Positions 1,015 to 58,085 of a stretch of 64,000 nt of DNA are shown piece after piece. Position 1 is the stretch's first letter. Each line of letters opens with the position of its first letter. Origin of the DNA: Peribolospora baueri (taxonomy: Eukaryota). The stretch is from contig JAMDHS010000017.1 in NCBI GenBank assembly GCA_029717555.1, forward strand, positions 1 through 64,000, in the 5' to 3' direction. The translations under genes were made by a program, and so were the position numbers. The notes under the pieces were generated by a model. It worked only from the letters and a program-made list of their open reading frames with translations. It was not told where the DNA came from and did not search any database.

Positions 1015-3775
<2,761 letters not shown>

Positions 3776-7926: not shown

Positions 7927-7966
<40 letters not shown>

Positions 7967-8357: not shown

Positions 8358-8484
8358 GAATCGGTGATGATGGTGGGCAGCGCGAGATCCGAGTCCGGAC
8401 AGGGTGCGTCAGTTGGTGAGATTTTGACTGCGGCAAAGATGCTCGACGTCCGTCCAGGGCCGTCGCCACGTGTCGCGCGTAATG

Positions 8485-9228: not shown

Positions 9229-9581
9229 TAGCAAATCCCCGCCCCGAACATTGTTATACCCTCCCCGATCAGACGAATAGAGTTTCCGTGAGCCTTGCAG
9301 AGGCTCTGTTGCTTTTGGAAGGCCCCATATGTGACTTGCAGGGTTCCTGTTCGTCTTGCAGGGCCATCTGCCATCGTCACAGAGTGTCCGTCGATCATGC
9401 AAGGCCCTCTTCTTGTCTCCCAGGCCTCAGCTCCCCTGTTCGTACTCAGTCGAATGCCTCCCTCAGGGCAGTAGCCATAATTGCCCTGGTAGTAGCAGCA
9501 TAGCCATTTCACTGCTCATGCAGGAATGCGTGGAAACTGTGACTAACGATCTCATTTCCATTTCCGTAGACTACATCTCTT

Positions 9582-16572: not shown

Positions 16573-19500
16573 CTACCTCCCTGCCCCACCCCCATCCCTC
16601 GTCGAGTCCCTCCGAATGGCAGAGGTGACCATGCTCCCGAACCGCCTAAACTCGGAAAAGGCCTTGCTCCCCCCGCCCTGTTGCGGCGGCGACGAGGGAC
16701 GGTTGAATCCGTCCGTCGACCCGCCGCCGCCACCGAGACCGAATGGCCCCGTGCGACCCATCATCGGCGGGCTGCTCGGTCCACCCAATGCGTCCCCGCC
16801 GCCGCCGCCGAAGCCGAGGTGGAAGCCGGACGCGAAAGGCGAAAAGCCGGTGGGTGTGACGAGCGGCTGCGACAACGGTTGCGCTGGATCCATGTCGAGC
16901 GCGGTGAGGAAGGACGTGTCGGAGAGATCGTCAAGAGTGGATGTTTGGGAGAGGAAGAGGTCGAATAGCGAGTTCTGGTCCACTCGGCGCACTCCCTGTT
17001 TCGCAAACTCCCCATCCCGTTAGACACACACGGCCTTGCAGCTGCTACAAACAGAGCCGGAAATGCGACGCACCTTGAGATCGAGCATTTTCTGAAAGTT
17101 GGAGAAGCTACGATCTCCAATGAGGACGATGTAGTTCTGCACAAAGCCTTCGGGCGGGTAATCAGGCGTCATGATCACCTTGAGGATCGTCTCAAGGCGT
17201 GAGACGTGCTTGTTCACGTAGCGAGAGTACCTGCAATGGGCACCCGCGGAAGGAAATGGAAGTGAGCCCCGTGGCAGGACCGGACCGCCCGCCGCCGCTA
17301 GCACGTTGATCCTCACGACGTTGCCGCCGTCAATGTGGCTTCTTCCTCCGAGTACTTTGGAAGCTCTAGCAAGACAATTTTGACTCCCAAAATGTCCAGG
17401 AGCAGCTTTATTCGAACGCAAGGACCGACCGTCAGCACGTCCTCAAGAGCGTTGGTGAAGTCAGCTTACCTGTTCTGCGATCGTCTTGGAGATGGGCTTG
17501 AGCTTTACGATAGTCTGCGTGAATCGCGAGATGATGATGCTGCGAACAGACATGCATGCAAAAATTTAGACCGTCAGTTTCAAGCCACCGGCAGGTAGAT
17601 CCGTGGAGCTTGGATCAAGGCCGAGGCAAGTACGGCCGGCCGCCCTCACCCGATAGCCCTATCACAGAAGCTCCTCCAATACCGCTTGTTCTCCACCCTC
17701 TCCCTCACCGGCCTACCTATACTCCCCACCACCGCCGCCAGCTCGTCCACATACGCCGACGTGCCGCTGACGTGCTCGAGAGAGTGCCACGGTTGAGGCG
17801 GACGGAGCATGGCCGCGAAAGCGGGTTCGGTGGCTTGCTCGAGGTGGGAGACGAGAGAAGAGATAGAGGAGGAGATGACGCTGGCGGACGATGCGAGAGT
17901 AAGCCGCGAAATGAGCGAAGTGGACAAGGTTGGGAAGAATTAAATTCTCCACGCTCACCCCAAGAACACCTCCCTTTCATCCTCCAAGCTAACCCTCTCC
18001 TTAAAATCCTCATGGATCTTCTCTCGCAACTTGTCCTCGAGCTGCGAGACTGTCGTTGAGCAGTAGTCCGCCGTGTTGAGCACAAGACACGCTTTCAGGA
18101 GTTCGGTTTGGTTTGGACGTGAGTCGAACGATCTCCGGGACGGCGGTTCTGGTCTGAACGCCCGATCAAGCGGGTTCAGAGCGCGAGGCCAAATAGATGT
18201 CTAAGCGAAGAGGACGCGAAAGACGAACGTGTACGTTCCACTCACCGACCCAATCCATTCTTCACCAGCACTTCATCCGCGTAACCTCTGAGCCATTTCT
18301 TGTATACGCCACACAAGTCCAAGAACGGCGCCCGATTGCTGAGCTTCGCGCACGTCTCTAGTGTTTGTCGGTAGAAGAAGAAGAGTTCCGTCGAGGATGG
18401 TAGCACGGTCATGATCGGTTCCGTGTCCCCCCCGTGCGCTGTTGCGGAAGCTCCGCCAGCAGGGCCGGCTGTCGAAGCGTTAGGATGGGTCGAAGAAGAA
18501 TGATCGGCAGTAGGTTGGATGGGCATGGAGCGCCAGACGGAGAGCATGTCCGCGAGAGCTCTGTCCTGCGCCTCAACAAACACGCCGAGGTAGGGATCGA
18601 ATGTGCTCGCAAGCGTGGCTGGCGTCGTAAGGTTGGTCGATGCGGAGCCGACGAGCTCGGTGTACTGTGGATGCGCGTGTCAAAGCGAATCAGAGCTTGA
18701 TTTCGGCGAAAGATCAAACCCTTGGACTCACCGAAACGCCATATTTCTTGCTCAACCAAGCCTCAAACTCGAGCGTACTCTGCAAGCTCTCCAAAAGCAG
18801 CTGGACCCCTAGCGTCGGTCGAGCCTTGGCAAGGATGGCCTTCAGGTCATCTCTGAAAAGCGAATCAAATACGAGTCGTCAGAAAGATGAGGCAACAGGA
18901 AATAGAGCGAAGACTACGCGACCAGAGAAAATGAAAGAACAACTGACCTTGTGATCTCATTCCACTTGCTGCACAACCACCGCCCCACATCCCACTCCTT
19001 CATGAACAGTACGGCATGCTCCTCGTCGTGCGTTTTGAGTACCCTTCGAAACCACGCGAACCGGCGCGCGAGATTGTCCAATTGACCGGCCTGACGTGGC
19101 GACAGGTTTGCGAAAGTGGAAAACAGTCCGTGAACATTGACTGGTCAACACCGTCTGAGCAGCAGGAAAGCACTCACTTCGTCGGTAAGTCTGAAGATTC
19201 GTCGGTAGTCTCGCAACTGCAGTGCGCAGTACCAGTCCACGAGATGGTTCCTGTCGAGATGGTGGGGCAAAGGGAATATGACATGTGAAACGAGTGCAAA
19301 GGCCAGACGCAGAACTCATAAAGCTAACCTAGCGTCGTCCCCCAAAGCGCCGATGACCAAGCTCGCGTCAGCCATCGTCGCAGGACGCAGGCCGCGTGCT
19401 GCGCCGTCGTGAAGGAAGCTGGGGCGGAAGCAAGGAGGTGACGGTAAGTTAGCATCCAATACATGATCGTGCCCACTGAGATCGATCGAGTCTGCCTACG

Positions 19501-20509
19501 TGCGAGGGCTTCACGGCCATTCCTCCCGCAAAACTCACTAATCCTCAAAGTCCCGCATGCAGCTTTCTCTTGCCCTTCCCTGCAGCTCTTGGTTGACCCT
19601 CCACACAGCGGCAATCCTATCAACACTTGTGTATGGTCTGAAAAAGGCTTGCAAGCTTCTGACGGCTTGCAGTGTCTGCGCCATCTCTCGATAGGAGGAG
19701 GAGGACCGGGTGGAGCAGAGGCGAGAAAGGGTATCTGTTGAGGAAACTGTGGGAGGAAAAAGGGGATAGATCCAAAGAAATTCAGGTTAATAAGATCAAA
19801 AGACGTCGTCAAGTTACGCGCGGGAAGAACGCCTACCTAGCATCTGAAAGCGCTTGACCACGCTCATAGAAAGCTGGATGTTCTTCTTAGCAAGGTCAAG
19901 GGAGCGAATATCGCTGGTGATGTCGCGCACAACCACTTCTGACTCGGACGCCTTCTCTTGTATGCGTGAGAGCTGTTCGAAGAGAGCCTGTCGTTGGGAC
20001 AGAGGGTGAAAAAGAGCTCTCGTGAGACCGGACCATCCGAAGCAGAAGAGAAGAGTGGGAACTAAACCCTTCGCAGACTTACAGCAATCAACTCCTGAAT
20101 CTGCACTATACGCCCCCTCCCCCCTCCTCCATCTGCTCCGCCAGCACCATCCTCTCCTCCACCAGTTCGCTGCTCAGCATCGAGCTCGGCTCGCAGCTGC
20201 AAAATCTCGTCTTGGAGCTCTCTGATCTCGCTGCGGAGGCGGGCTTGGATCAAGGAAGCTTGGGAGAGAGACGATTCTGGGTCATGTAAAAAGAAAATTC
20301 AAGGCAAGAGAAAATAAGTAAAGTGAGCGCTGGAGTAAACAAAGTGACGGAAAGAGGAGATCGCTAGCCGTCGCGCAGAGACGGCCTTGCGACGACCCAC
20401 CGTCGGGAAAGAGTTCGTTGAGCGCATCCACCAAGCTTGTCTTCCCAAGGGCGGCGGAGAGAGTAGGAAACGGCGTCGGAGGAGCCATGGCGGTAGTGGC
20501 GGAAGCCAT
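16573..20509 (-). CDS. VPS53: GARP complex subunit Vps53, multi-exon
   Basis: LVDALNELFPD, REKASESEVVVRDITSDIRSLDLAKKNI, LPSSTELFFFYRQTLETCAKLS, CLVLNTADYCSTT, LETILKVIMTP..PPEGFVQNYIVLIGDRSFSNFQKMLDLKG. Confidence 0.92.
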
Positions 20510-21127
20510 GACCCGTCTCCTCAGAGCGGTGGAGCTCAGGTATAACTATAGCAAGTGAGACGGGTGAGCAACGAATGGCGGTTAAGTTCGGACGTGAGTG
20601 GCCTGTGCAGGCAACCGCAACTGATGTCACGTGCCTCGGTCTGACGTGCGCCTCCCTTTTCTCTTCGGCCTCATCGTCCTCGCTCCGTTTCAGACTGGCC
20701 CAAACCTGACCCGGCCCGGGTTGGCGGCCGATGCGGCCCCCTTCCCAACCCTCCACTCTCATCTTCCCTATTTCTTCGCTTACTTCGAGCTCTCAACACC
20801 CTCGAATATGATTGGCCTTATTTTACCGCCAACACGTGTGCGGCCAGTGCCTCTCGCGCTCAAGGCACCCAATTTTTTCTCGATTTAGAGCGTCCGGTTG
20901 CTCATGGGCTCAGGCAATGCGCGTCGGCGCGGCTTCTAGTCCTACTTTCCTGCTCCCTCCCGCGTACGTTGAGCTGCACATTCTCTCGGCAAAGAAGGAC
21001 AAGTAGGGCAGGGCATGGTTTGCAATGAGGTCTGAGCATTTCTATGTTGATCATGGACAATATCATTGGTTTATACAAAGTTCGTCTTCCGAAATGATAC
21101 CTGTTCGTCGTCATCCTAGCTATCTAT

Positions 21128-22799
21128 CTACTTAGGAGCCATCATGGTAGTCGGAGCCTCTGGGCGCCTTCCGCGGTCGTCAAGGAACCAGTTGAGCGAG
21201 TGGTCTTCGACGTGCTTGCGGACGCCAGTCCAACCGTACGCGTTGCGCTTCCGCTTGAGGTGCTGAGCGACTTCGTCATCTGCGTGGTTCTCGCAGCGGT
21301 AGCCGTACTGGAGGCACTGCGTGCGCGGGTCTCCCCAGAGGTTGGGCGTGCGGAGGTAGTGGATGCCTTCGAGCTCGACGCTCATGGCGCGGTCGCGAGC
21401 TTGCTGGTCCGGGCCGTCGGGGAACTGCCAGATGTGACCCTGGGTGATGGAACGTTCCTGCGTCTCCGTCGCCCTGTTCAAGCGCACATCAACGTAAATG
21501 TCAAGCGCCTCCTTCAAGGAGAGCTGGCCCTTGTTGACGTAATCCGTCACACGGCCCAAAACGGCAGCGTCCTCGATGGCCATGGCCGCCCCTTGGCCCA
21601 TGTGGGGGAACATGGAGTGGGCTGAGTCGCCGAGAAGGGTGACCTTGTAGCTCGGCGCGTTCCACGTCGGAAGGGGCTTGGTGAGGAGGAGACCCCAGCG
21701 AGTGCACCATGTCGTCGCCTTGATAATCTTGGCCACGACTGGGGCGAAATCAGCGAAGTCCTTGAGTGCTCCGGCCTGGCACTCCTGGTCCGGAGCGTCG
21801 GGCGGATTCGGGTCTTGCTGCGACGTGACGATGTTGATGTACTCGTTCCCACTCATGGGGCTGAAGGCGAGAACATAAAAATCGCTTGAGTTTCCGCTGT
21901 CACCGTAGGAAAAGGGAAGAGATAGAAAACTCACTAGGTGATAAAGTATTTGTTCTGGCCCATCCAGAGGTTCATCGCCGGCTCCTCGTACAGCTTGTTC
22001 AGCTCCTCGTCGACTGCGCGAAGGTCGGCGGTCTTGACGCTCATACGGTAAGCCGCGGCGTTGCCACCGGGGTTGTAAGGCTCCGCACCGGGGAACATGG
22101 TCCTGCGGAATACCGACTTGACACCATCAGCGCCGACGAAAAGGTCTGCCTTGACCACCTCGCCGGTGTGGAGGGTGACCGACGGCGCATCGACGTCGAC
22201 GGAAGAGACACGGGCGTTGGTGCGGACGATGACGCCGAGCTCCTCAGCGCGCTTGATGAGGCAGGTGAGCAGGTCGTGTCGGTGGAGCGTCCACCAGGGC
22301 GCACCCAGGTTGCGCTCCATGAGTGGGTTCAGGTCCGAACGGCCGATCGGCTTGCTAGTCTCCCATCGGTAGATACGGAAGTCTTTGGGCTTCACGGCTC
22401 GGTCGCCGAGGAACTTTGCCGCACCCCACTTCTGGAGCAGGTTGCTAACGTTCGAAGGTACCTGGATACCAGCACCGATCTATATACCGTGAAAAGAGAC
22501 GGAAGGGATCGGTTAGCGTCAAGAAGGAAGGGCACATAGATGGAACAGGCAAGCACACAGGCAAGCGCGAGGCCAGCACGAGGCTGCCGATTTTGGACAG
22601 CCCACGTCGTGGACACGCTCCGCAAGGCGACATGGCAAAACAAGAACAGAAAAGAAAAGATGCAACCGAATGTACTCACTTCACCGAGCTCGGGTGCTGC
22701 TTCGAGAATGGTGACCTTGCAGCCGGCGAGGGTGAGCGAGACAGCAGCGGCCACGCCACCGATGCCGCCGCCGACGATCTTGACGTCGAGAGATGGCAT
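21128..22799 (-). CDS. FAD-dependent monooxygenase (group A, salicylate hydroxylase-like)
   Basis: Three exons carrying IVGGGIGG, EIGAGIQV, VGADGVKS, GDSAHSMFPHMGQGAAMAIEDA and WQFPDGPDQQARD. Confidence 0.93.
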
Positions 22800-23612
22800 A
22801 CTTGAATGAAGAAAAGACAGAGAGGAGGGCTGGGTCTAAGGGGATTGGGTGAAAGCCAGAGGGAACGATGCTGAGGGTAGAGTCCTAGGCTACAGCAGAC
22901 TGGCTCTTTTATATGCTAGACAGGTGTCTGTTGTCGCTCGGCCCAAGATAGCTCAGCTCATCTGCCGCCCATACGAGCCTGTTTTCCACCCTGCCTCTCA
23001 TCGCAGCGACAGGTAAACGAGAAAGAACGGATAGCGTTAGCTACATGCGCTGTGGGCCTTCCTTCGGGTTGGACTCTTGGTCGACTTGCGTGAACGCACT
23101 GATCGTGCAGTGGAGAGACAGAGATCCGTGCGGGGTAAATTAGGGAGGATATCCGGTGCAGACAACCGCGTCCCGTCGGATAGCTGAGATCCGCATCATA
23201 TCTATCCGGCGTACAGGGCCGAGGCCGGGGCCCCGCTTTGTCGGCTGGCCGCGTCGCATCTCGTCCCGGATACCTGCAGGAGTCCGGCTACCACATATTT
23301 GGTACCACAACATCTCAGCGGTGCACTCCCACTGCGTGAAGCCAGCGGCGGGTTAGGGTGCGCACGGGTGTGGGTCGTCTCGGTTCAGTTCGGCACGACC
23401 GCATCAGTCTCCACTTCCGGAGACAACGTCATCCTGTGCGGAGAAGCGAGTCCTGAGAAGGAGGGGGGGAGGCGACGTCTACTTTACAAATACCGGCCTT
23501 GCTACTTCCGCGCACCCCGGCACACGGATCTTCACTCTACCCAGCCTGAATCCTTCTTCTGCCCTTCTCAACGCCCCGCTCACAACAGACTATACAAGAA
23601 CGTTCCCACATC
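22800..23612. promoter_or_regulatory. Divergent promoter with five TATCCG/CGGATA sites (candidate Zn2Cys6 half-sites)
   Basis: Motif at 23028, 23150, 23177, 23203 and 23267. TATAAA on the minus strand near 22907-22913. Confidence 0.6.
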
Positions 23613-25271
23613 ATGTCTACTGTTCCGCTCAAGACTGTCGACCTCGCCTCCGGCATCACGGCCGCTTACCGCCAAGTGCCTGAGCGTTTCGATTCAGCGA
23701 AGCCGACTCTCGTCTTCCTGCACACTTTCACCAGCCACAGCTGGTATTACGGTGAGTGAGCCTCGGGCCTGATCGTGTATAGTTGATTCTGTTTCCCTTG
23801 GTTTCCAATTCATTAACACCGTGTTATCACCTGATTCACCGCCCATCGCTCATGTCGGCTTGCAATCTTTCCTCAGCCGAACAGCTCCAGAGCAAAGAGC
23901 TCACGTCCCGGTTCAACTTGCTGGCCATTGACGAGATCGGCCATGGCTACACCGAAGGTCCCCAAAAGTGGACTTTCTGGGTGTGTGACCGCTCGAGATT
24001 CAGCGTTTCCTGCCTTCTGTCTATTTTACTTGTTCCCATGCACAGCTTTCTGATATAGATTCGATCTGTTTTTCCAACTCCATCTGCCACGTCTTGCGCT
24101 GAACCAGGATACGGCCAAGATGGCGCTTGGTGAGTAATCTCTTGGCTTTATTCGGGAAGGAGGGATCCTGTCATGATGCGTCTTGTGGAAATCTGACGCA
24201 CATATCTCCGTCTTTTGATACTCTTATCTCCCATGCCGTTCCAGACGTCATGGTGAGTTAGCTCGCCACTTTTATGGAGTGAATGATGGTCCAGATTCGA
24301 TCGACTGATTTCTCACGGGCTTCCCCCTCGTTTGCGCATCTCGCTTCTCATTGCCGCATCTGTGGCTTGTTGCAGGACGCCGTTGGTGTCAAGAAGGCCT
24401 TTGCTTTGGGTAGCAGCCAGGGAGGTGCCATTGTCGCGCAAATGGCGCTACTCGCTCCCGAAAAGATTGCCGGTCTGATTGAAGCCGGGTGCGTATCCTG
24501 TTGAGTGTTTGGAATGGAATACTCTCGTACGTAAGACGAACCTGCCATGCTAACGTGGACGCATTTTTTTTTCCCTTGATGCCCTCGACAGGACGTCTCT
24601 GGACGCGGAAACTCAAGAGACTCGGGATCTCGGTTGCTGGAACGTGCCTGCCGTGGAAGCTGACTGGTACGCTATCCTGGACCCCGGACACGCTACCCCT
24701 AACTGGGTCGTGCCGGACAAGGCAAGTTCATTTTCTTTCCAAACGTCTGCCCTTGTTAGCACGGTGTTGGTTTGCTGACTTTCCGGCGCAATCAACTTCT
24801 TCCTTCACATCAGATCACCAACGACATCATGGGCGTCGGACTGGGCGAGGACGTTCCCGCTCCCTTCGGGGCTTATTGGAATGCTGAACACAAGAAGATC
24901 TTTGGCGGGCAAGAGGGTCGTGAGAAGCTCCTTCAGGCGTCCAAGTGCCTCTTCGAGCGCGACAGCTTGGTTCCAAAACTCGACTCCATTACCTGCCCGG
25001 TCCTCATCATCCACGGGACGAGGGACAACGTGTTTTCGATCCCGCTGGTTCACAAATGGGCGGCTTTGCTCAAGAATGCGAAGGTCCAAACTGAAATTAT
25101 CGAGGTCCGTTTGCTTTGCTTCGCGTTTTCAACAGCGACGGAGCCTGTGCCTGACTCTTTCTGGTTTTGCGCACCGCTGCACAGGGTGGGCACCATTTCC
25201 TGACGGTCAGTCACGCTCCCGAAGTGGAGAAGCTGGTGATCAACTTCATTGAGCAGAACACGAAGGCGTGA
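23613..25271 (+). CDS. Alpha/beta-fold hydrolase, multi-exon
   Basis: PTLVFLHTF, NLLAIDEIGHG, nucleophile elbow GSSQGG, CPVLIIHGTRDNVF, GGHHFL. Micro-exons 24108-24129 and 24245-24252, and a probable GC donor at 24722. Confidence 0.9.
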
Positions 25272-25873
25272 GGCGCACGACGTCAACACTATCGTTCCCA
25301 CCATTCTCGTGATTTTTTGAATTTGTGACGTGTTATAGTACCCAGGTGTGGTTTTGTTATGTAGCCAAATGGCGGGCAGCGAGTGTGCTGAATTGGATGA
25401 CCACATTTACCGCATGTTGATCTGCCTCCGTCCATCTACCTGTTCGAGGGTACACCTCGGACGGACTGGCTTGACGGACCTCCGAACATAGCAAAGGGCT
25501 AGCTGATGTAAAAGCTCATGTGAGCGAACCGCTGAACATAGCAAAGGTGCCAGCTGACGTACAGGATGGCTAGACTACACGGGCAGAAGTAACGTAAGCT
25601 GCACGAGGATCAAGCGTTCTTATGAGGTCAGCATAGATCTCATGAACGGACATCTATCCGGCGTGAGTCGAGAGGAGCACGTATCCGAAGGGTCGGAAAG
25701 CTGCACAAAAGCCGTCGCAGTCACGTGAAGTCTCACGGAATCAGATTGGCGGGATCGAATAGCTCTGCGGCCGCATCGCCGATGGCCGGCTTGTGGGGCA
25801 CCGCAGCCCCCATGTCCCGTCGCTGAGTGGACACATCATCCTTCCTCCCTTCCACCATGGAGCTCCCTCCCTG

Positions 25874-28800
25874 ATGACCACCATTCCCGCATCGCCTGCT
25901 GTCCCTAGCCCCTCTCCTGGTCCATGGACCACACCGGCAGTCATACCTCCACCGCCACTGTCGCCAGCCTCCATCGCCGCCGAAGCCGCCCGCGCGCGAC
26001 GCCGAGTCAAGCCGGAGAAGCGCAAGCGAAGTGCCATCAGCTGCGACCTTTGCAAGGCCAAACGTATCAGGTGCAAGCGCTCGAAGCTTGGAGAACCTTG
26101 CGAGGCGTGCATCAAAGCAAAGGTTGACTGCACCCATGACGCCCCTCGAAAGATTCGCCGGGTGTTCGGTAGCGAAGCGGCAGTGCTGTTTCCGGGCCAT
26201 GCTTACCTCCCGACCTCCACACGTTCTTCCGGTCACGAGCGACGATCGTCTGGGCTCTCAGATCGTGGCGATGAGACGGGGATGCGTTTGAAGGCGTCGG
26301 TCTCGACGCAAAGGGCCGAGACTATGCCACGGCAGCCGTCCTCGTCGGTCTCTCCCGCTCCCCACGGACCAACTATCGATCACGACCGCCGCGCAAGCTC
26401 GACTGCCGCCGTGGCTACAGCTTGCTCAAGTACGTTCGGTGGTGATGCTTCCATAGGCCCTTCCACCGCAAACCCATCTCCCGAATCTTTTGTGCCGCCA
26501 GAAGCCGTGTCATGCGGTCCCTCTGCGCCTAGTGGTCCCGCATACGCGGAAGCTGGCCTTCGAGAATCGAGCTCGAGGCCGGCAGGTGCAGCAACGGGAT
26601 CATCTCCTGTTTCTCCGGAGACGGAAATTTCAACACTCTCGCCGGGCCTGTTGCAGGCTGACCTCCGGGGCCGCCCTCGATACGTTGGACCAAGCGCTTC
26701 GCTGCACTTCTTCGCCCAGCTGCGGGACATCATGTCCAAACACGAGCCCAACTCGGAATTCGTTCGAAACGGACTATTCCGCGCTCTTGCCAGCTTTGAA
26801 GACCCCTTGCAAGGCCCGGTCAAGGAAAGAGGACCGAAGGGCGGGGGAAGGGGCCCTGCGGACGGCCCCGGACGTCGCATGGAAAGCGGCTCTGCTCCAC
26901 CCTCGTCGTCGATTCGCGGAGCCTGGCCTAGTAGAGAGTGGAAAGGGCTTACGAAGACGGGTCCGCTTAAGATGCCTGCGAGATGGTGAGCATTTGCACA
27001 GAACACGTATTTCCTGTGTTTTGGGCACGTGCGGATTGACTGGTTGACACCGTAAATTGTTCCTCAGGCTCGCCGACACACTCGTTGAAGCGTTCTTTAC
27101 CCGCGTCCATGGCGACTTCGTTGTCTTTCATCGCGCGACCTTCTGGTGCCGATACGAGTCCATGTGGAACGCCTCTGGCTCCAATTTCGAGCAGGATTCT
27201 GCCTGGACGTGTTCCGTTTGCATGGTGCTGGTTCTGGGAGCTAGCGCCATAATGGGTAACGTCGCGCCATTCGGCAACAACAAGGGCGCCTCTGGAAATG
27301 GTACTGGTTGCCAAATCTCAAGCTCCCAAGCACAGTCCCCGGCGGACGCGGCACCGCGTACGGACTCGTACGGGTTAGCTGGCGTCGCATCGAACACTCT
27401 GAAGGGAATCCAACGGCGATATTACCGACATGTCGAGGCCCTCCTTCCCCGGGTTTTGTGCGGTTCGTCCCTCGCCAACATTCAAGCCATTCTTCTCGTC
27501 GCCGTATACATTCACAACGAGGACGAGAGGGAGGCCACGTGGAACCTGACGGGCTCGGCCGTGCGCATGGCGTTCGCAACCGGGATGCACCGCAAAGAGA
27601 GCGCTGGTGGCCAGCTCCAGAGCGAGTTCGGCACACTGGAACGTGAGATGCGAAAGCGTTTGTGGTGGACGCTTTTCACCTTTGAGCGGTTCCTATGCTC
27701 CAGCATGGGAAGACCGAGTTCGATCAATGACGACGACGTCGACGCCGACTTGCCTAAGGACAGCATCCTCGACACCAGCGACCAAGGCCCGCTCGGGTAT
27801 CTCTGTCAGAACGTGCGTTTATTTCAACTTGTCGGTCGCATCTGCAAAACTGTCTACAACCCCATCAATCAGCCCGAGGACAAGACTGCGGTGGCTGTGG
27901 CCCTGTTCGACGAACTGAAAGCGTGGCGAGAAGCCGTGCCCGCCCATCTTGATCTTGATATCCCGCAAATCCCCACGCACCGCCGCGCGCTACTCCTCCT
28001 GCATATCCAGTATCACAACGCCATCTCGCTCCTCACACGGCCATTTTTGATTCTTGAGACCAACGACGCCGGACCCAGTGACCCCTTCGCACACATGGAC
28101 GGACCGATTGGAGACGGACACTGGAAGCAACAGGCCGAACTCGCCTACACTTGTGTTAAATCTGCACAAGCGTGCGTTGCTTTGCTGCAGACCCTACGAA
28201 CGGAAGGCCTGTTCAACGCGACGACCTGGTTCGACACTTGGTGGACCTATAGCAGCGCCATGATCCTTGCCATACCGGTCATTTGGAAGCATGGGCGTCG
28301 AGCGCCTCGAGGTGACAACCAGAGAGGGATTCAAGGACGCCAAGCGACGGGAAGGAGCACGTTGGAATCCCCCGACGATGACGCGGGAAGACGAGGTGCT
28401 TCTGAGTCGGGCGGAGACATGCCAGTCGCTGAGCAAGCCGAATTGTCCGTAGCTCCAGCAGCGTCCTCTAACGGAAGCAGCCCCCCGGCCGTGCTCAAGG
28501 TTGAGACCGCCGAAAGGGCCAAGGAAGACTTTCGGACTTGCCTGGACCTGCTGGATGGGCTTGCCCTTCGCGGCACTCTAGCACGCTTTGCTGAGGTGAT
28601 GAATAACCTGGCCAAAGCCGTTGGCGTATCCGTCTCTCTGCGACACGGACGAGAGCGATCGGGGAGGAGAGGCCAGCCTGGCGCGAGGGAAGGGAACGCA
28701 GAGCGCCTCGGTTCATGCCACGAAGCGGGCACGCTGTCGGGGACTTCCAAGGTTCTTCAAGCGCACCTTTCTCGCGGCCGAGAACAGGCGAAAGTTAGGG

Positions 28801-29372
28801 TCGTTCCGGTTGAGCCCTCATCGGAAGCGTTTAACCTCCCTCGCCACGACCTTTCGCCGCTCACCTCGCCCAACAGCGTGGGACCTTCGCCCACTGGAGC
28901 ACAATCCATTCAGCAAGTCGACAGCAGCGCGCAGGCTTCCACTTCGAGAACGCCGTTCCCATTTCAAATGCTAACTCCGATGACGGGGCAGATGATACGA
29001 AGAGATAGCGTGTCAGGGGACGGATACGGGCTTCATAATGGCGCAGATGCGTCGAGTTTGGATGGCACCCTCGGGCCTAGCCCGGGCGCCATGTCCGATT
29101 TCCGCGCTCAACTACTGCATCCTCAGCACGATGGCAGCCGGGTGTACGACGACTGGGCCGGCGTCTTTGAAGGACCGCTGGGTATCTTTAGCGGACTCAG
29201 CATGACGGAGCCGGCCGGGGGTGGTGACGGCCTGTGGGGTGATCGAGCAGGCGTTGGTGTTGGCGCAATGGGTGGGACTGGTGTTGGAGATGAGAGGACG
29301 GCGTGGGAAGTGGCGATGAACTGGAATTGGGACCAGATCAGCTCTGCGCTCCTTCAGAGCAACCCTTTGTAA
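25874..29372 (+). CDS. Zn(II)2Cys6 transcription factor with fungal-specific middle homology region
   Basis: SCDLCKAKRIRCKRSKLGEPCEACIKAKVDC, RYVGPSAS, WNLTGSAVRMAFATGMHR, REMRKRLWWTLF..ERFLCSSMGRPSSI. One intron at about 26986-27068. Confidence 0.94.
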
Positions 29373-30408
29373 CAACAGTGTATGTAGAAGAAATCCACGC
29401 ATCGTCCAGCTGTATTATGCCTTGGGTGCGTGCTCCCAGTGTCCGACAGTCTCGACTGTTGTGAATGCGCCCAGTTGCATTCGTCGGTCGAGGAGCGGGG
29501 ATCTGGCCGGCTAAAAGAACGCCTGCTCGGAGCGGGGATGAGAAGAGCGAAGACGGGTACCGCTCGTCCTTGGTGGATGGATCGCCGCGCGCCTGGAGCT
29601 GGTGCTGGTGGTCCGAGTCGCAGCCGGGAACCGTCCGCTCGGGCGCTCGAGACATGGTCACCATACCATGGCCGCCGGACGGGCATGTATGGTGGGACCA
29701 GTGGAGGCGCACTCGCACGTCTGTGGGGGAGAGAGATTGGGCTGCGGACGTACCGAGGGTGCAGATGCGGGCACGGCAATCGAGCGCGGCTCACAGCCTT
29801 GTCCCGGACTTGCGGAGCCTCCGACTCGGAACACGGCCACTCGGCATCGTTTATCCTGTACCACCACTGAGCTAAGTCCATGCCGAGCCATGTCCGACGA
29901 GGACGACAGCCGGTGGAGGCAGTCTCACCTTCCACCACTGACAGTAGCGCGTACAGCATCATTCCTATTGTCCGCGCTTCCGGCTCCGCATTCACTTAGT
30001 CTCACGCGGACCGCCCATTCACTTCCCCGTTTTCTACCCGTCTTCTTCCATCACAGCTTCCTGACGGCGACAGTGTGAGCGCTTGGAATACAGTCGTCCC
30101 TCGGCGCCGCACGGACGGGGGCGGAAGGCCGAGCGGGAATCCTGTCCGCGACTCGGCGGATCTGCCATGACTCGTCTACGCTAGCTACATCAAGTGGATG
30201 GGACCTGAGACGGGCGAACAAAAGGGACAATGATGACACCGACGACGAGGAAGAAGAAGTTCCGCCGTGAGCGCCTCCGCGTCCTCATCGACTGGCCAGG
30301 GCCAGCATCTATTTATTGTGTGGCTGCTTTCTCATGGATTCGCCCCATCACGGACGGTGCTCAGCCCACACTATATCCTCTTCTCGTTGCTGCTAAGGCC
30401 TTCTGGAC

Positions 30409-32326
30409 ATGGGTAATTGGAACAAAGCTGCTCAGCTGAACGCTCTCAACGAGCTCGCGGCTACCGTAAAGGTCAGTCAGTACGTTACACTCGCTTCCTG
30501 TGGCCACTGGACTCACAGGATCGGTCGTGTCGCATACCCCTGCAGGAGCTCACCTCGTACCTCGAGAGCCAACCTGACGATGCACAAGTCCATCCCGGCA
30601 CCTGGCACTTTCCATGGACTCCGGCATCGGGGAAGACCGCGCATGCCTTGAGAAGGAACTACGAGTGGGTCGTGTAGCATCAGTGATCAGGGCGGCATTG
30701 GTCCGTCGCAACTTCTGAACTTCGGCTCCTCTTTCGTCCCCGCTACCAGGACCGTGCTGCGGAGCATACTGTCTCCCGGGCAGTACATTCTCGAAAACGC
30801 TCTAGCCATCGACGAAGCTTTGGCTATCACCACTCTCTTGGAATATGGCATCCCCGACCAACTTGACGAGGGGGAGGTGAAGAGCGTGGAAGAGCTCGCC
30901 AACAAGAACAACGCCCTTAGCGTCTCCCGCATCGAGGTCCTCCTTCGCCTCGCTGCCTCCTTTGGTATCTTTGAGGAAGCGGAGCCGCTGTCCGGCAAGT
31001 GGAGACATACCCCTCATAGTTTGATGTTGCGCAAGGACAGCTCTGTCCCCGTGTGGGCCTTGGTCGAGTATAGGTGCGTCCATCTGGGGATTCTACGCAG
31101 CATGCCTGTTTCTGTCTGCCTTGATCTTAATCGACGTAAATTTCTCTCATGTTGCCCCCCGGCTTTTCGACTTAACAGTAGCGGCGATTGCCTCAATGCG
31201 GTTATACGTCTCCCGGAGCTGTGCAAGAAGGACTCCGAGCACATGTCGGGCATCGAGTTGCTCTTCCAGAAGCACCGCTTCGTCATAAATGCAGAGGACT
31301 CGTTCAAGGCGGAGCTATTCAACATCGCCATGAAGGCTGCCAGCTCTTATCTGGCCCCTGGACCCTTCGAAGGTACGAATGACATCTGGCAAACACGGAG
31401 TTGGCGTTGGCCTCCCTGTGAATTCCTCGCCCGTGTTGCGCAGAGCACAGAGCTGAATTTCTTGCTTGCTTCACGGTGAACCCCCCGTAGACTATGATTG
31501 GGCGTCTCTCGGCAAGGACGTCACCGTCGCCGACTTGGGCGGCGGAATCGGAAGCCACGCAATGTACGCTCTTGCCCGTCATCCCAACTTGCGCTTCATC
31601 GTCCAGGATCAGGCGCATGTGGCCGAAGAAGGGCGCCAGGTGAGTAGTAGTATCCGGGCATCCCGTAAAGGTCAAAGCGCGGGCGAAAAGAAGAAGGGCT
31701 TGGTGTGACATTGGATTGTTCCGCCACATTGCCATTTGCGCTTTCGTTCAGTACTGGGCCAAACACATGCCCAAGGAAATGAACGAGCGCGTGGAATTCC
31801 AAGCGTAAGTACCGTATGCGTCGTGTTGTTGGCTGAGGGATAGCGAAGTGTCAATCTCATTGTTGTCTTGCCACACCTAACGCCCTTCTTTCATTTCGTC
31901 TAGTCACGACTTCTTCAAGCCACAGCTAATGCAGGTGGCTGACGTGTACTACATGAGCAGCATCATTCACGACTGGGACGACGAGGACGCGATCAAGATT
32001 TTGCGTGCCCTGAGGCAGAGCGTTCGGCCGGGTACGAAACGTGAGTCTTCAGGATTCCGTTCCGCTGTCATATCCTCGAGTTCTCATCCCCACCTCCCAC
32101 CCCGTCTATTGTCCTGACCAACTCAGTCCTCGACGCCGAAGTGGTCATCAAGCCGTACAATGACCGCTACACGCACACGATCTCCGTGCACATGATAGTG
32201 GCAGTCGCCGCCAAGGAGCGCACAGCCGAAGAGCACACCCGTCTTCTCAATGCGAGCGGATGGGAGGTGAAGAAGATTTGGGATACCAGGAGCGTATTGA
32301 GCATTATCGAGAGTGTCGCAGTGTAG
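30409..32326 (+). CDS. SAM-dependent O-methyltransferase (Methyltransf_2-like), multi-exon
   Basis: Winged-helix region RIEVLLRLAASFGIFEE...WRHTPHSLML, then VADLGGGIGSH, FIVQDQ, HDFFKPQ, DVYYMSSIIHDWDDEDAIKILR and KERTAEEH. Confidence 0.9.
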
Positions 32327-32680
32327 GTCGTAGGCGAAACCTTGGTCCTCACCGTACAAGCTCTTCTCTATTTCTAAGCGTGTGATTTGAGTGCCCGGAA
32401 CGGCCGGGATTGCTGGGCATTCTCCGTTATCGCCCCCTGTTTGTTTGACCGGGCCTCGCTCCGCTGGTCGCAGGGAAACGGAAAATCCCCCTTCCCGTGT
32501 ATGTAAGCAGGATGGAATGCCACTCCACGTGGCTCGACCGCGGGTGCTGATCGATCGAATGAATGTGATCGGTGCGCGTTTGGCCGGCGTCGCTGTCTCG
32601 CTGCCGACCTCCTCCATAAACGGCGACGGCCTTTCACACGACGTCTCCATCTTTCGCTCCTCTTCACCCTAGTTCTCATC

Positions 32681-35600
32681 ATGTCAGACCGAACCGATGA
32701 GGGCGAAGTGCCCTCTCCACTCAGCGCCAGGTGGTTCCACGCGCGCGAGAAGGAATGGTCACCATTCTCCCCCAAGGACAGCACTGCGCTGGAGAAGGCT
32801 TGGCAAGCGCTGACGGACGAGGAGCGAGTGGAGCACAAACGCAGGAGAGAGAGGGAGCGTGCGGAGGCGGAGGAGAGCAGGAGGAGGAAGAGAGAGGGGG
32901 ACAAGGGCGCGGAGAAGATGTTGGTAAGCATCCATGAGGGTTTCGTCCCCGACCCTTCCGCCCTATCCTTCTCCGCCCTCGCTTCTATGGTCGGTGTCTC
33001 AGGCGCAGACTGGGTGAAGATACCAGGCAACAGTGGTCCTTCTTCGTCGCACGGAGACTTTGACGTTTGCTCTCCTTCGCTTTCTTCCAAGTCCTTGCCG
33101 TCGTCGGAAGGGGAGGGCGAGGACAGGGATGAGAGAAAGCAGAAGGGCGACACGGGAGCTGCCGCCGCGCCTGAGTGGACACCGAGAGACCCGAATGAGC
33201 CACTACCGCATTGGAGGGTGCCGGTCGCAGAAGACGCGCTGTACGAGGTTGACTTGAAGTCCATGAAGGTGAGCTGGGCCATCGTTCAAAAGTTAGCGGT
33301 CCACACGGTTTCCAGTTAACGGTCCCACCATTGTCACTCCTACCGCGGGTCTGCATCGCAAGCTCTTCCCGGTCTTCTGGAAAGGCGCGGAGCTGGACGT
33401 TCTGAGAGCTACCTGGTTCTACGACTCTGCAGATCGCTTCTTGCCCGTGGATAGAGATCTGGCGGACGACCTCGAGGAAGCGTATAGGTGAGCGTGCAAG
33501 CGGTGTATGCACCAGCCGGCCAATCTCTTATGACAGGGTCCTCGTTGAACGCGCGCCCTCGCCTCATTCCCTTTGCTTCTGCGCTGCCATAGACGTATTC
33601 AACCGTGGCAAGCCTCCTATGCCGAGAAGATGCGAGCAAAAGCGTCCGATCAGAAGGACAAGAAGGATGAAAAGGACAGCGACAAGGACGACCAAGTGGT
33701 ACGCCTGTCGTCCCTCAAGGACGGATATGTCATCTTCGTGGACGGAAAGTGCGCTCGGCTCTACACGTGGGTAACTCTCCTTGATTGTAGCGTGCCTACG
33801 TGGACCTTTACGCTGGTCAGCGTCGCTCATATTCGCTCGATCACTCGCAGCGGAGGCATAGTCGGCCGTCTGTCCGACTCCATTCGCGAAGCCTTCTCCT
33901 CCGTGGGCGGGTCACTCGTCCTCCGCGGCTTCGATGAGTACATGCGCCGACGTAGAGGCGAGAGGGACGGCAAGGCCAAGTCGCAGCCCAAGAGAGTTCA
34001 GACTCAACCAGGTCAACTGACGAAGGAGGCATCGAAAACAGGCGCCTTCGATCGACCAGCTGGTGCGGCGAAGCCGTCTGCGCCCCAGTGGAGTCGACGC
34101 CATTCCCAATCAAGAGATGAGGTAGAAGGAGACGATGAATCGGAAGGAAGCGGCGACGATGGTATTGGCCTCAAGACTTCCAACTTTTCCTGGCGGGAGA
34201 TGAACCTCTTCGACCTCCTTCCCGGTCGAAGAGCCGGGAACCAAGGACAGCGCCCTCAGAACGAAGAGGAGAGGCGAGAAGCGGTGACGAATGAAGGCCT
34301 GGACGGTGCACAGGAGAGGCACGCCCAGCCGGTGGACACGGTGAAGGACCTATTCGAGGACGACAGTGGGGTTGTTATCGGTGGACTAGGGGATGAAGAA
34401 GAGGCAAGCGAAATCGAACAGAGAGGTGGTGTTTCCGCTGCTGTGGAAGAGGAAGAGCTCTGTAAGGAGGAAGCCAACCGGTCGCCGGGAGACGAGGAGG
34501 TCACGGTAGAAGAGCCTCCCCACCTCGTTCTCGTCATCCACGGCATTGGTCAGAAGCTCGCGGAGCAGTGGGAGTCCTTCGACTTTGTCTATGATGTGGC
34601 CCGTTTCCGCAAGCTGTCGAAGTAGGTGGCGCCGAGCTTGAACGCCTCTCCGGTCTTGGCAGAGCTTCTGACGACTCTGGTTTATTGCCCCGGACTCAGG
34701 CGTCAAGCACGACAAGAAGGCGTCGCGTCTATCATGGGTGGCTGCCGTGCTCAGGTGATTTCCTGGACTTGGACCTTGGGCACGATGATCATGTCTGTTG
34801 ACGTTGCTCTCCATTCATGCCTCTGACGACATCTTGTCTTCAGTTCATACCCGTCTGTTGGCGAACGCACATCCGCTTCGAGAATCAGGAAAAGGAGGTC
34901 AAGGACGAAGTTCTGGACAACACTTTCTCTTTGGACGACATCAGCGGTGACAAGGACTCTATACCCCTCGTTCGGACGCTCATCAGTCATGTTATGTGAG
35001 CGGATTGCTACATTCGCTGGTCAAGGATGAAGATTGTGGTGGAATTTGGGCGACGTCTTCCCTTCGAGCTGACAACGGGAACTCTCTTCTTGTCGGGCAT
35101 ATGCTATATCGTCTTCATTCCGCAACGCACCTCACCCTCCGGCAGCCTAGATGTGCCCTTCTACCTCTCCGCCCACAAGCACAAAATGGTAGAAGCGGTG
35201 GTCGCAGAGGCGAATAGGATGTACCGCCTGTTCTGTCAGCGCAACCCTCGCTTCGCCGAGAATCCCAAGGTGTCCGTCATCGCTCATTCTCTGGGTGCCG
35301 CTCTTGCCACCGACATGTGAGTCTCCGTGCAGCTGCAAATCCTGCTCGGGTGGATGAGGGAGAAGAGGAGTTGATCGATCGCCCGTCCTCTCACTTCGAT
35401 CAGTCTCTCCCAGCAGCCAGACCACGTTCCACCGCTCTCGTCGACGCCGAAAGAGGAGCTCGAGACGCGCAAACGCTTTCTTTTCGACACCCAGCAGCTC
35501 TTCCTCGTTGGATCGCCCACCGCGTTCTTCCTCTTCTTGGACAAGGCGCAGCTCATCGCCAGGAGTGGACGATCTAGGGTCGTGGACGAGAGGAAGGGTG

Positions 35601-36792
35601 TGACGTTGGACGGGAGGGGCGTGTACGGCTGTTTGGCTGTGGATAGGTGAGCGTCCCCAAGCATCCTCGGACCGCGTGGTTCGGCGACGTGGGTGTGTGG
35701 CGATCCCGACGCTCATGGAGGTTTCCGGCGAACTGCTCGTGGCGGCGACGACAGCGTCTATAACGTATACAACAAGTCCGATCCGGTCGCTTACCGAATG
35801 AACGCCACGGTGGACTCGGAGTGAGTAGGAGCGGTGGGCTTGGCATTTTGCGTTTTTGCGCCGAACGCGTCCCCGTCGGATTACAGTTTGCGCTTTGACG
35901 TGTCCACTCACCTCTCACACTTGGTTTCTATGTCTGGCCTTCCACGAACTGTCGAATTGGACCGAACAACTCGAAAGATATGCCAAATACTTATCCCCAG
36001 TGCCCATTTCCTCAGCGGTTGAAGGCCTTCTCGACACGCTCGCCCTTCCGCGCCTATCGGTCACCAAGTTCTTGCAGTCTCGCAAAATTGCCTTTGAACC
36101 AGGATCGCCTACCGGGTCGAGGGCCGGCATTGACGCCAGGTCGGACCCTTCCAATGTTGCCGAGAGCGCTAGGAGCGATGGGAACCCAGAAGAGTCAGAG
36201 GGGACGAGCGGGCCGGGTTCAAAGGGGACGAACAGTCCACGGACGCCGCGAACACGGCCAACGATGACGAGAAGGAATGCTGAGCTGGAATTGGAGATGG
36301 AGAAGTTGGAGAGGGCGCAGCAGAGGTGAGGTGGTTGTTGCGTCTGCCTTTTGGTCCCCTCCGCGGATGACATCCCGACGTTAGCCTGAACGTGCTTTTT
36401 TTTTTTTTTATCTTTCGGAAATATGACCTGCCGCCGATCCGGGACGACAGGTTCAAAGCTCTCAACCCGCACGGATGTCTCGACTTCTATCTCGAACCGG
36501 ACAACTACGAGTATCTGGCCATGTTGTCCGCTCATCAGGGCTATTGGGAAGGTGCGGTCCGTCTTGCCACACTTTGTCGTTTTCACTGTGAAGAGGCGGC
36601 TGAGATATGTCTATCCCTTCCTTCTGCGTGTCCATCTATGATTGCTGTCCTTATCCAGACCCTCAATTCTCCGCGTTCGTCCTACTCCAGCTGTTCTCTT
36701 CGCAGCGAACGCTCGAGGCGGCGGGCGGAATGCTGAAAAGAGGCGAACAAGCCGTCACGGGCTTCGAGTCCGAGCGCAGCAGGGCCGAGTGA
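32681..36792 (+). CDS. DDHD-domain phospholipase A1 (Ddl1/PA-PLA1-like), multi-exon
   Basis: HLVLVIHGIGQKL, FIPVCWR, lipase motif IAHSLG, LFLVGSP, YNVYNKSDPVAYRMN, MLSAHQGYW. Confidence 0.9.
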
Positions 36793-37332
36793 GGCTCAAC
36801 CCGTGTGAATCGGGAGGGTCAGGGCTCTTATGGTACACGGCGGCGGGGGGATGGTGCGGGAGGAGAGGCGAGCGACGCCGGTGAGGGCGACGGCGAGGAT
36901 CAAGGGGCGAGCGAGAGACAGCCATCGTGGATCTCGACTCTAGCCAGCTCGTAGCGCGGGCTTCCTTTGGTATCGCTAGGTCATCCTCTCTTGGTGCGTC
37001 GGTGTGCTCGTGTCGTTCGTCTCGTGTCGCCTCGCTCGGTTCCTATGGGTTGCAACGAGCCGAGGATGTTTCATACTCCGGACCGGATCGTGCGACGGGT
37101 TCGATCAAAGAACTGAAATGCGAGACTTGGGCGTCGTTTGTAAGCAAATTAAAGGTCATCATCATCGGCCGGGCCGCGCCGCGATTACCGCCCGGCATGC
37201 GTTCATTTTTCACGAGGCAGTCCGTTGTCGCCTCGGAGTCGGGCGACGTCGTCGAGGGCGAGAGCGGAGCGAGACAAGACGACAACGGACGGACGTAGTT
37301 GCAGTCAGCCAGCCAGCGCGATCAGCCGGTGT

Positions 37333-37393
37333 CATCACCATCACCATCACCATCACCATCATCATCACCATCATCCTCATCATCATCATCATC
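37333..37393. repeat. Imperfect (CAT/CAC)n microsatellite
   Basis: About 20 CAY units upstream of the CRAL-TRIO gene. Confidence 0.9.
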
Positions 37394-37807
37394 AACTTTA
37401 TCATCTCCATCTCCATCCCTTTCAGCCTCGCAACGAGCATCGCCTTCCCTCCGTCCAAATCAGCCTCAACTCCCTCTTGCCCTGCCTCGCTCTTCCTCTC
37501 GCGTCCCGCAGCCCTCCTTATTCTGAACAGGCGCCCGTTGCCGTTGCCGTTGCCGAGCAACCCCAGCCGCCGTCGCCCATTCGCAACGCAGCGCCCCGCT
37601 TGCTTTGAGTTGCCACACTCGCAACCCTCCCCGTCGCCTGCCCGACTTTTAACTCTATCCCAGACAATTTCCACGGTCATCCAGAGGGCCCTGCTCGCCC
37701 TCATGAGCTTATACTCGCAACGTCGCTTTTGAAACGACGATCGTCATCCGTCCCCTCGCTCTCTGCCCTTGCTCTCTCTCCTCCCCTCATCCCGCCCTCT
37801 CCCCACC

Positions 37808-40800: not shown

Positions 40801-41218
40801 GCAACACGTGTACCTCCTCTCCACCGCTGTTTTGGAGCCATCTAGCCGGTTCCTCGGTGGCGGCGGCGGTGGCAGTGGTGGTGGCGGCAGACAGGGAAGG
40901 GGAGGTGGTGGTACAGGGAAAGGAAAGGGCACCCGACCGCTGTTCCCGTCCGGTCGCATTGAGTCCGCGCCGTCCTCTTCGTCTCCCTCGCCATCCTTCC
41001 TCCCCTCCACGGCCACTCCTCCCTTGTCTGGTGGCTTCGGCCTTGGCCTCGGCCTCGGGCCCGTCGTCGGTCGCGGCATCGCGCACCTGCCCATACCCAT
41101 ACCGAACGTGGATCCGATGGCGCACACGCGCTCGGGATTCCACATCCGGCAGAGGCTCGGATTGGGAGGCTTTGTCGGTATGGGCCCGGGGCGGAGCGCT
41201 CCGTCTCCTCGGGCGTGA
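37808..41218 (+). CDS. CRAL-TRIO (Sec14-like) domain protein with long disordered tail and C-terminal hydrophobic segment
   Basis: DKLHRPTGIIYL, QMSIVLDLEGSG, LLKNHFPGMVG..VFLLHYGWMYSGMWQLAKRVVPETALARIFF, LPQAWGG. Hydrophobic WIYLFCILLFLF near the C-terminus. Confidence 0.85.

Positions 41219-54056: not shown

Positions 54057-54057
<1 letters not shown>

Positions 54058-54116
<59 letters not shown>
54058..54116. repeat. Perfect (GTT)19 microsatellite
   Basis: Direct reading of the intergenic sequence. Confidence 0.95.

Positions 54117-58051: not shown

Positions 58052-58085
<34 letters not shown>

Follow-up and report, generated by a model that had tools for sequence, protein, structure and literature searches.

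Do the four consecutive genes at positions 21128-32326 of contig JAMDHS010000017.1 from Peribolospora baueri (assembly GCA_029717555.1) work together, or do they merely stand next to each other? We addressed this question in the 64,000 nucleotides at positions 1 to 64,000 of the forward strand, referred to below as the window. A first-pass annotation of this DNA had read the four genes as an inducible pathway that hydrolyses, hydroxylates and methylates an aromatic compound. Pfam matches and spliced gene models confirmed the four genes as a flavoprotein monooxygenase, an alpha/beta-hydrolase, a Zn2Cys6 regulator and an O-methyltransferase (OMT). Our reading of the predicted proteins and promoters is that the block is a real neighborhood of accessory aromatic metabolism, built around what is probably a self-contained pair of enzymes controlled by the regulator. 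We hold this reading tentatively and put it slightly below an even chance.

The window consists of GC-rich (0.52-0.67), intron-rich fungal DNA. Stop-to-stop open reading frames (ORFs) between 19 and 35 kb were used as input for the Pfam scan, and splice sites and three reading frames were read by hand. The introns of the four gene models range from 74 to 200 nt.

The monooxygenase is encoded on the minus strand by three exons (22799-22680, 22479-21935 and 21860-21128), which together give a protein of 465 residues. Both introns (200 and 74 nt) are of the GT-AG type. Intron 1 (22480-22679, 200 nt) is unusually long for this locus, and of the block's three tandem-repeat rows two fall within it (22547-22584 and 22642-22660). 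Three ORF pieces match FAD_binding_3 or Rossmann-type models for flavin adenine dinucleotide (FAD). Exon 1 matches NAD_binding_8 and FAD_oxidored models, and FAD_binding_3 reaches 26.2 bits on exon 2 and 32.7 bits on exon 3 (cut-off 22). An N-terminal GxGxxG loop as well as the DG and GD motifs for FAD and NAD(P)H are readable in a single polypeptide, which assigns the protein to the group A flavoproteins.

Residues 4-422 align with a 459-residue protein from Gelatoporia (P0003) at 40.7% identity, and the identity to an enzyme from P. chrysosporium (P0235) is 36.7%. A comparison of exon 2 with solved structures resulted in E-values of 5.8e-32 for PDB entry 8gsm, 1.7e-29 for 8r2t and 2e-28 for 8x38. 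For exon 3 the values were 9.8e-28 (8r2t) and 6e-26 (8x38). Overall, the matches to these three entries (1e-22 to 6e-32) are far ahead of those to tropone 2-monooxygenase, 3-hydroxybenzoate-6-hydroxylase (3HB6H), NicC and salicylate hydroxylase. Entry 8gsm is a 4-hydroxybenzoate decarboxylating enzyme, 8x38 is the decarboxylative vanillate 1-hydroxylase of P. chrysosporium, a name that is also carried by P0235, and 8r2t is GsMNX1 (PMC13559804). The nearest solved relatives of the monooxygenase are fungal decarboxylating 4-hydroxybenzoate/vanillate 1-hydroxylases (MNX1 type) with identities of about 37-41%.

According to the report on PcMNX1 (PMC13559804), the key residues of this enzyme are Gln79, Tyr134, His247, Tyr251, Pro337 and Phe395. 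Gln79 and Tyr251 bind the carboxylate, Tyr134 orients Gln79, and Pro337 replaces Gln301 of 3HB6H. His247 is the general base and the H247A variant is dead. The position of Phe395 is occupied by Trp in the non-decarboxylating 3HB6H (all PMC13559804). We mapped these positions with the printed pairwise alignments and with a MAFFT alignment of 96 out of 120 listed matches, namely those with at least 380 residues (24 shorter ones were dropped). The equivalents in the window enzyme are, in the same order, Q46, W102, Y218, Y222, P307 and W366. Gln79, Tyr251 and Pro337 are retained in this set. Tyr134 and Phe395 are both replaced by Trp; in the column of residue 366, 72 of the 96 homologues carry Phe and none carries Trp. 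Tyr218 is aligned opposite the His of 8gsm, 8r2t, 8x38 and tropone monooxygenase.

A quick maximum-likelihood tree of 49 rows was calculated from the monooxygenase model and 48 chosen matches (the named ones and some others; the rest were omitted). In this tree the monooxygenase lies outside a 36-row Agaricomycete clade (SH-aLRT 93) that contains the P. chrysosporium enzyme. The monooxygenase is on an end branch of length 1.35 that joins another long branch, and the placement carries a long-branch warning. With the catalytic His replaced by Tyr and a position outside the characterised clade, we rejected the enzyme as a bona fide MNX1. The sequence predicts a phenol-hydroxylating group A flavoenzyme of the 3HB6H/MNX1 lineage that is not MNX1 proper. 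Because Tyr218 replaces the general-base His and the pocket contains Trp102 and Trp366, its substrate or the outcome of the reaction probably differs from the decarboxylation of vanillate or 4-hydroxybenzoate.

The hydrolase gene (23613-25271, plus strand, 297 residues) is divergent from the monooxygenase gene. It was modeled by eight exons (23613-23751, 23877-23980, 24108-24129, 24245-24252, 24376-24488, 24592-24721, 24814-25104 and 25185-25271). Two of these are micro-exons of 22 nt (24108-24129) and 8 nt (24245-24252), and the alignment to homologues is free of gaps across both. Intron 6 (24722-24813) is apparently of the GC-AG type. None of the five raw ORF translations matched Pfam, because the gene is split into small exons. 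Exon 5 alone scored 28.4 bits with Abhydrolase_1 (cut-off 25.8), a family that was matched by all eight full-length homologues scanned. Residues 7-293 align with residues 6-296 of the 298-residue protein P0137 at 39.6% identity. The triad of a serine hydrolase is found in aligned columns, with Ser in GSSQGG, Asp in HGTRDN and His in GGHHF.

When 1.84 billion representatives were searched with exon 7, only 68 came up as relatives at E <= 1e-3, one of them 83% identical and the others at most 47%; against the PDB this exon gave two marginal matches only. Named full-length relatives are scattered over Stictis, Lentinula raphanica, Choiromyces, Lasiodiplodia, Parahypoxylon and Aureobasidium. When 11 homologues were combined into a profile, its closest matches were bacterial esterases and 3-oxoadipate enol-lactonase (E-values from 1e-14 to 1e-18). 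The solved enzymes PcaD and bacterial carboxylesterases (PDB entries 2xua, 5egn and 2xmz) have the alpha/beta-hydrolase fold and the Ser-Asp-His triad in common with the window hydrolase. The first loop of the latter, however, reads H-T-F in place of the usual H-G. The best NCBIfam models for three out of three homologues contain PcaD (NF051488, bifunctional PcaDC, on top, followed by PcaD, TIGR02427). These scores come from homologues, as the window hydrolase itself was scanned exon by exon. With TIGR02427 the three nearest full-length homologues reach 52.3, 60.9 and 64.9 bits, far under the cut-off of 255.85 bits, and an identity of the hydrolase as PcaD was rejected on these values. The protein is best described as a predicted serine alpha/beta-hydrolase of the esterase/lactonase type with an intact Ser-Asp-His triad, belonging to a small and scattered family.

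Directly downstream of the hydrolase lies the gene of the Zn2Cys6 transcription factor (25874-26985 and 27068-29372, plus strand; 1138 residues, intron of 82 nt). Six cysteines with the spacing C-X2-C-X6-C-X8-C-X2-C-X6-C are followed by the fungal-specific middle homology domain, as in Gal4-type factors. The Zn_clus model scored 18.8 bits and remained sub-threshold (cut-off 21), and Fungal_trans reached 97.9 bits (cut-off 23). The full Zn2Cys6 factor of the first-pass annotation is borne out by this architecture. A search with exon 2 found 17 relatives with a best identity of 58%, and the only nearby named ones are from Cladophialophora (33%) and Exophiala (25%). The orthologue P0232 aligns with residues 377-1135 of the regulator at 58.7% identity.

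The monooxygenase and the hydrolase indeed form a divergent pair, as the same annotation had proposed. Their start codons are separated by a spacer of 813 bp (22800-23612), which contains a cluster of five CGGATA/TATCCG half-sites (23028-23272). As read from the sequence, these half-sites start at 23028(-), 23150(+), 23177(-), 23203(+) and 23267(-). The cluster is a candidate binding region for the adjoining Zn2Cys6 factor and includes a CGG-N11-CCG inverted pair at ~23176-23192 in a Gal4-like arrangement. In an unbiased scan of the divergent promoter, none of the 2,077 canonical hexamers was more enriched than CGGATA/TATCCG, which has 5 of its 19 window copies there (p = 3.3e-6); the second-best hexamer had a p of ~1.5e-3.

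The region upstream of the regulator is related to this promoter in two ways. An element of 13 nt has just two exact copies in the 64 kb, one in the divergent promoter (23200-23212) and one 222 bp upstream of the regulator ATG (25652-25664), and both are on the plus strand. The two regions have two overlapping 12-mers in common, compared with 0.07 expected from shuffles. A further half-site, TATCCG, is located at 25682. In total, the 602-bp region upstream of the regulator holds two half-sites where ~0.13 would be expected from the other 14 copies, and the two regions together contain 7 of the 19 copies (p = 1e-7).

Orthologues of the monooxygenase (P0001, 86% identical), the hydrolase (P0121, 83%) and the regulator (P0232, 59%) were found in one close relative. 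Each of them lists a longest contig of 13,003 nt, and this equal size is the only basis for placing them on the same contig. The close matches (P0001, P0121, P0215 and P0232; 58-86% identical) are all from assembled contigs; the searches brought up no annotated protein from the source organism or a closely related named one, and the nearest named matches (25-41%) are from different fungal classes. Annotated fungi show no conserved cluster, because the named homologues closest to the monooxygenase, the hydrolase and the regulator belong to different fungal groups. The first-pass annotation could not match the block to a described cluster, and the open-access literature that we searched likewise describes none of this composition. 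Candidate clusters for phenylpropanoid degradation in fungi, reportedly presented by Gluck-Thaler and Slot in ISME J in 2018, are said to lack a backbone gene and to contain hydroxylases, hydrolases and Zn2Cys6 factors.

The fourth gene codes for a COMT-type OMT of 369 residues (30614-32326, plus strand). The model comprises seven exons (30614-30700, 30784-31073, 31179-31372, 31491-31639, 31752-31804, 31904-32040 and 32127-32326); the start codon and the junction of exons 1 and 2 are uncertain. The Dimerisation domain was matched on a single exon with 26.0 bits (cut-off 25.6). Methyltransf_2 reached 33.1 bits on exon 6 (cut-off 22.3) and a sub-threshold 21.7 bits on exon 4. Exon 6 aligns with CalO6, GedA and MmcR and retains the His of the HDW motif, which we take to be the catalytic base. 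The assignment to the COMT type is based on this His, the dimerisation domain and a glycine-rich loop for S-adenosylmethionine (SAM). The atlas neighbors of the protein are Dimerisation/Methyltransf_2 clusters. For the N-terminal ORF (275 residues) there were no matches at E <= 1e-3 among 1,400 candidates and nothing in the PDB; with short exons and a search that needs shared 5-mers, this null result is not proof of an OMT that stands alone. The enzyme is predicted to be of the phenolic small-molecule type.

Based on these gene models and promoter elements we propose the following scheme. When a phenolic compound is present, the Zn2Cys6 factor would bind to the candidate half-sites and activate the monooxygenase/hydrolase pair together with its own gene. 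The hydrolase would release a hydroxyaromatic acid or a phenol from an ester or lactone, and the flavoenzyme would next hydroxylate the released aromatic. The OMT, located 1.2 kb further on, may cap the resulting hydroxyl group. A regulated core of three genes is plausible, and so, for these three, is the pathway of hydrolysis, hydroxylation and methylation suggested earlier; its methylation step involves a gene that is linked by adjacency only, and its hydroxylation step an enzyme in which the catalytic His is absent. The earlier statement that group A hydroxylases and Methyltransf_2 enzymes act on phenolics is made more specific by the MNX1-type relatives of the flavoprotein and the predicted phenolic class of the OMT, but the missing His does not allow a substrate to be inferred.

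A number of observations speak against the proposed unit. The OMT is tied to the other three genes by adjacency alone: its upstream region (29373-30613, 1.24 kb) contains none of the 19 half-sites, and the k-mers that it has in common with the other two promoters are at or under shuffle expectation. A control with 632 sliding windows of 813 bp revealed equally strong or stronger hexamer clusters at three other loci of the 64 kb, and because of these comparable clusters the hexamer cluster in the promoter is, taken alone, only suggestive. In a relative with 83-86% protein identity, linkage would be anticipated from common descent anyway and is hardly informative on function. The nearest named homologues point to differing groups, namely Agaricomycetes for the monooxygenase, the six scattered genera named above for the hydrolase, and Cladophialophora and Exophiala for the regulator. 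In the Pfam scans of the block, the flanks and the window ORFs, the block turned out to contain neither a transporter nor a ring-cleavage dioxygenase or a reductase. At the position of Tyr218, 94 of the 96 homologues carry His, one carries Gln, one has a gap and none carries Tyr. Because the monooxygenase lacks this catalytic His of its characterised relatives, its substrate is not readable from them, and the enzyme may catalyze something quite different or be weakly active. PcFPMO4-7 are His-less paralogues of PcMNX1, about 35-37% identical to GsMNX1 and of unknown function, and PcFPMO5 and PcFPMO7 are inactive on 4-hydroxybenzoate, vanillate and syringate (PMC13559804). A non-basic residue at the general-base position is common to PcFPMO4-7 and the window enzyme; by their description in that source, the former have Gly, Cys or Ser at this position and not Tyr.

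Alternatively, four independent accessory-metabolism genes of large fungal families, each with its own regulation and substrate, could be neighbors by chance between housekeeping genes. This explanation accounts for the non-overlapping taxa of the nearest named homologues of the monooxygenase, the hydrolase and the regulator, for an OMT without the cis-element of the others, for hexamer clusters of similar strength at three other loci and for the lack of pathway-completing genes in the Pfam scans of the window ORFs. It does not account for a 13-nt element that is confined, within the window, to the divergent promoter and the region upstream of the regulator, nor for two half-sites in the 602 bp upstream of the regulator where ~0.13 are expected. 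The divergent arrangement of the enzyme genes and the 13,003-nt longest contig listed by all three orthologues also argue against it. We regard chance neighbors as rather unlikely, yet as an explanation that has to be taken seriously.

The preferred reading of a regulated enzyme pair has a more specific version. The pair and its regulator could form a self-regulated three-gene unit around a new subtype of the 3HB6H/MNX1 lineage, with Tyr in place of the otherwise universal general-base His and a pocket reshaped by two Trp residues. This subtype would carry out an undescribed hydroxylation of a phenolic that is masked as an ester or lactone, and the OMT would possibly trap the product. White-rot PcMNX1 and GsMNX1 (PDB entries 8x38 and 8r2t), described as decarboxylating hydroxylases of 4-hydroxybenzoate, vanillate and syringate (PMC13559804), are a close reference for the enzyme. 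The window enzyme resembles them in the fold, the FAD motifs and the equivalents of Gln79, Tyr251 and Pro337. It differs in having Tyr for His247, Trp for both Tyr134 and Phe395, and a long branch outside the Agaricomycete clade. The Trp at the equivalent of Phe395 corresponds to the state in 3HB6H as given in the same source. We consider such a subtype unlikely at this level of detail. If it is real, the pathway would have no described counterpart, would include an esterase/lactonase from a little-sampled family and would belong to a fungal lineage for which the protein collections searched contain no annotated genome.

As an alternative, the block could be a fragment of a catabolic cluster for hydroxybenzoates (3-oxoadipate branch), with a true 4-hydroxybenzoate/vanillate 1-hydroxylase and a 3-oxoadipate enol-lactonase. 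The best solved relatives of the monooxygenase are decarboxylating hydroxylases of 4-hydroxybenzoate and vanillate, and PcaD-containing models are best for all three hydrolase homologues. Candida parapsilosis offers a precedent in its 3-oxoadipate and gentisate clusters, which contain MNX1, MNX2 and MNX3 together with the Zn2Cys6 factors Otf1 and Gtf1 (PMC8929692). These clusters are the nearest known system. In both cases a group A hydroxylase of the hydroxybenzoate type adjoins a Gal4-like Zn2Cys6 factor, and the promoters contain inverted half-sites of the GGA/CGG type. The factors of C. parapsilosis bind GGR-N10-WCC and GGA-N7-TCC (PMC8929692), whereas the sites in the window are predicted from sequence only. 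Compared with the clusters as described there, the window locus has no ring-cleavage dioxygenase, reductase, CoA-transferase or transporter and instead contains the alpha/beta-hydrolase and the OMT, and its hydroxylase lacks the catalytic His. A hydroxyquinol dioxygenase, a maleylacetate reductase and a transporter were not found nearby in the Pfam scans. The replacement of the catalytic His by Tyr and of both Tyr134 and Phe395 by Trp, the position of the enzyme outside the 36-row clade of the characterised enzyme and PcaD scores of 52-65 bits against a cut-off of 255.85 all disagree with a 3-oxoadipate branch, in which an OMT has no role either. We judge a catabolic fragment of this kind to be improbable.

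Little probability also remains for a biosynthetic tailoring module without a backbone gene. Such a module would hydroxylate and O-methylate an aromatic acid from primary metabolism, yielding a methoxylated hydroquinone or quinone with a redox-active or signalling role. The formation of hydroquinones by MNX1-type enzymes (PMC13559804) is in favor of it. So are the nearest solved matches of the OMT, which are the natural-product phenol OMTs CalO6, GedA, MmcR and MpaG'. These enzymes and the window OMT have in common the Dimerisation and Methyltransf_2 domains, the glycine-rich SAM loop and the HDW His; the window OMT differs by the absence of a polyketide synthase (PKS) partner and by an N-terminal half without a relative at E <= 1e-3. 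A tailoring module is, however, difficult to reconcile with an OMT that is not linked to the other genes by a common element, with the absence of an exporter from the block and with the missing catalytic His.

Finally, recent horizontal transfer of the block as an acquired island was rejected as very improbable: each gene has few close relatives and tandem repeats are sparser here than over most of the window, but the G+C content at third codon positions (GC3) of the four genes (0.63-0.80) is within or near the range of ten flanking ORFs (0.65-0.78), the introns are of the local type, the repeat-poor zone extends over the neighboring VPS53 gene, the nearest homologues of the genes indicate different groups, and the phylogeny check on horizontal acquisition that the first-pass annotation had called for, which was run on the monooxygenase, did not nest this enzyme in any donor clade of the maximum-likelihood tree. 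Composition gives no sign of a recent transfer.

The intracellular handling of phenolics derived from lignin and plants by fungi is only partly mapped. In the MNX1 lineage, the enzymes are described as shifting between hydroxylation and decarboxylation by few changes in the pocket (PMC13559804). A natural Tyr at the general-base position would be a ready-made test of how this position sets reactivity. Here the Tyr-variant flavoenzyme sits beside a candidate regulator and a partner hydrolase, and the compact promoter with its clustered half-sites offers a direct means of tracing the inducer. Should the genes be functionally unrelated, the locus would represent ordinary accessory metabolism.

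On the left the block is bounded by VPS53 (17023-20173, minus strand), for which VPS53_C and Vps53_N matches were obtained on four ORFs. The right boundary is a WWE and DDHD lipase-type gene (32507-36733, plus strand) with WWE_2/WWE matches; two matches to DDHD (22.3 and 24.7 bits) are both under the cut-off of 28.3 bits. Both genes lie outside the module. Coordinates, strands and flanks agree with the earlier placement of four consecutive genes between VPS53 and a DDHD lipase. The reported absence of a backbone gene also stands, as three Pfam scans found no PKS, non-ribosomal peptide synthetase (NRPS) or terpene families: none in the 25 ORFs of the scan from 19 to 35 kb, none in 98 ORFs of at least 60 residues (near flanks and the gap between regulator and OMT) and none in 113 ORFs of at least 150 residues outside the block. 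A terpene synthase gene that is short and rich in introns could have escaped these scans if it lies in another part of the window.

The block had also been described as lacking the microsatellite-rich style of its flanks. It is indeed poor in repeats: among the 150 tandem-repeat rows listed (out of 159), only 3 start within 21128-32326 and 51 within 1-21127, and all others start downstream. Upstream of the block tandem repeats have a density of ~2.4 per kb, which compares with ~3.3 per kb on its downstream side. The repeat-poor zone (~17776-32862) is, however, larger than the block and takes in VPS53; only five tandem-repeat rows start in these 15 kb. The low repeat content, although real, is not confined to the block and was rejected as its hallmark.

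Among the dispersed hexamer clusters of the window, the strongest is formed by TATGCA at 8401-9313 (6 of the 15 window copies after thinning to at least 20 nt apart, p = 2e-8 in the sliding-window control). It lies just past the high-coordinate end of a dihydrouridine synthase ORF (6381-8408, minus strand), i.e. upstream of that gene. Four long open frames of 773-1298 residues (11016-13925, minus strand; 38897-41215, 46162-48579 and 55340-59233, plus strand) have no Pfam match at E <= 1e-4. They are GC-rich, overlap many tandem repeats and may be low-complexity proteins or spurious frames. Repeat arrays at 54057-54116, 57709-57797 and 37332-37417 comprise a perfect 20-copy TGT microsatellite, an array with a period of 36 nt and a repeat with periods of 6 and 18 nt that is rich in CAT/CAC. 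An ORF at 52431-53639 (plus strand) matches Methyltransf_25 weakly (24.7 bits, cut-off 27). The window further contains an ORF with RPEL repeats (50469-50969, minus strand), an aspartyl protease in two ORF pieces (43218-44875, plus strand) and a fragment of a GH18 chitinase (1169-1798, minus strand).

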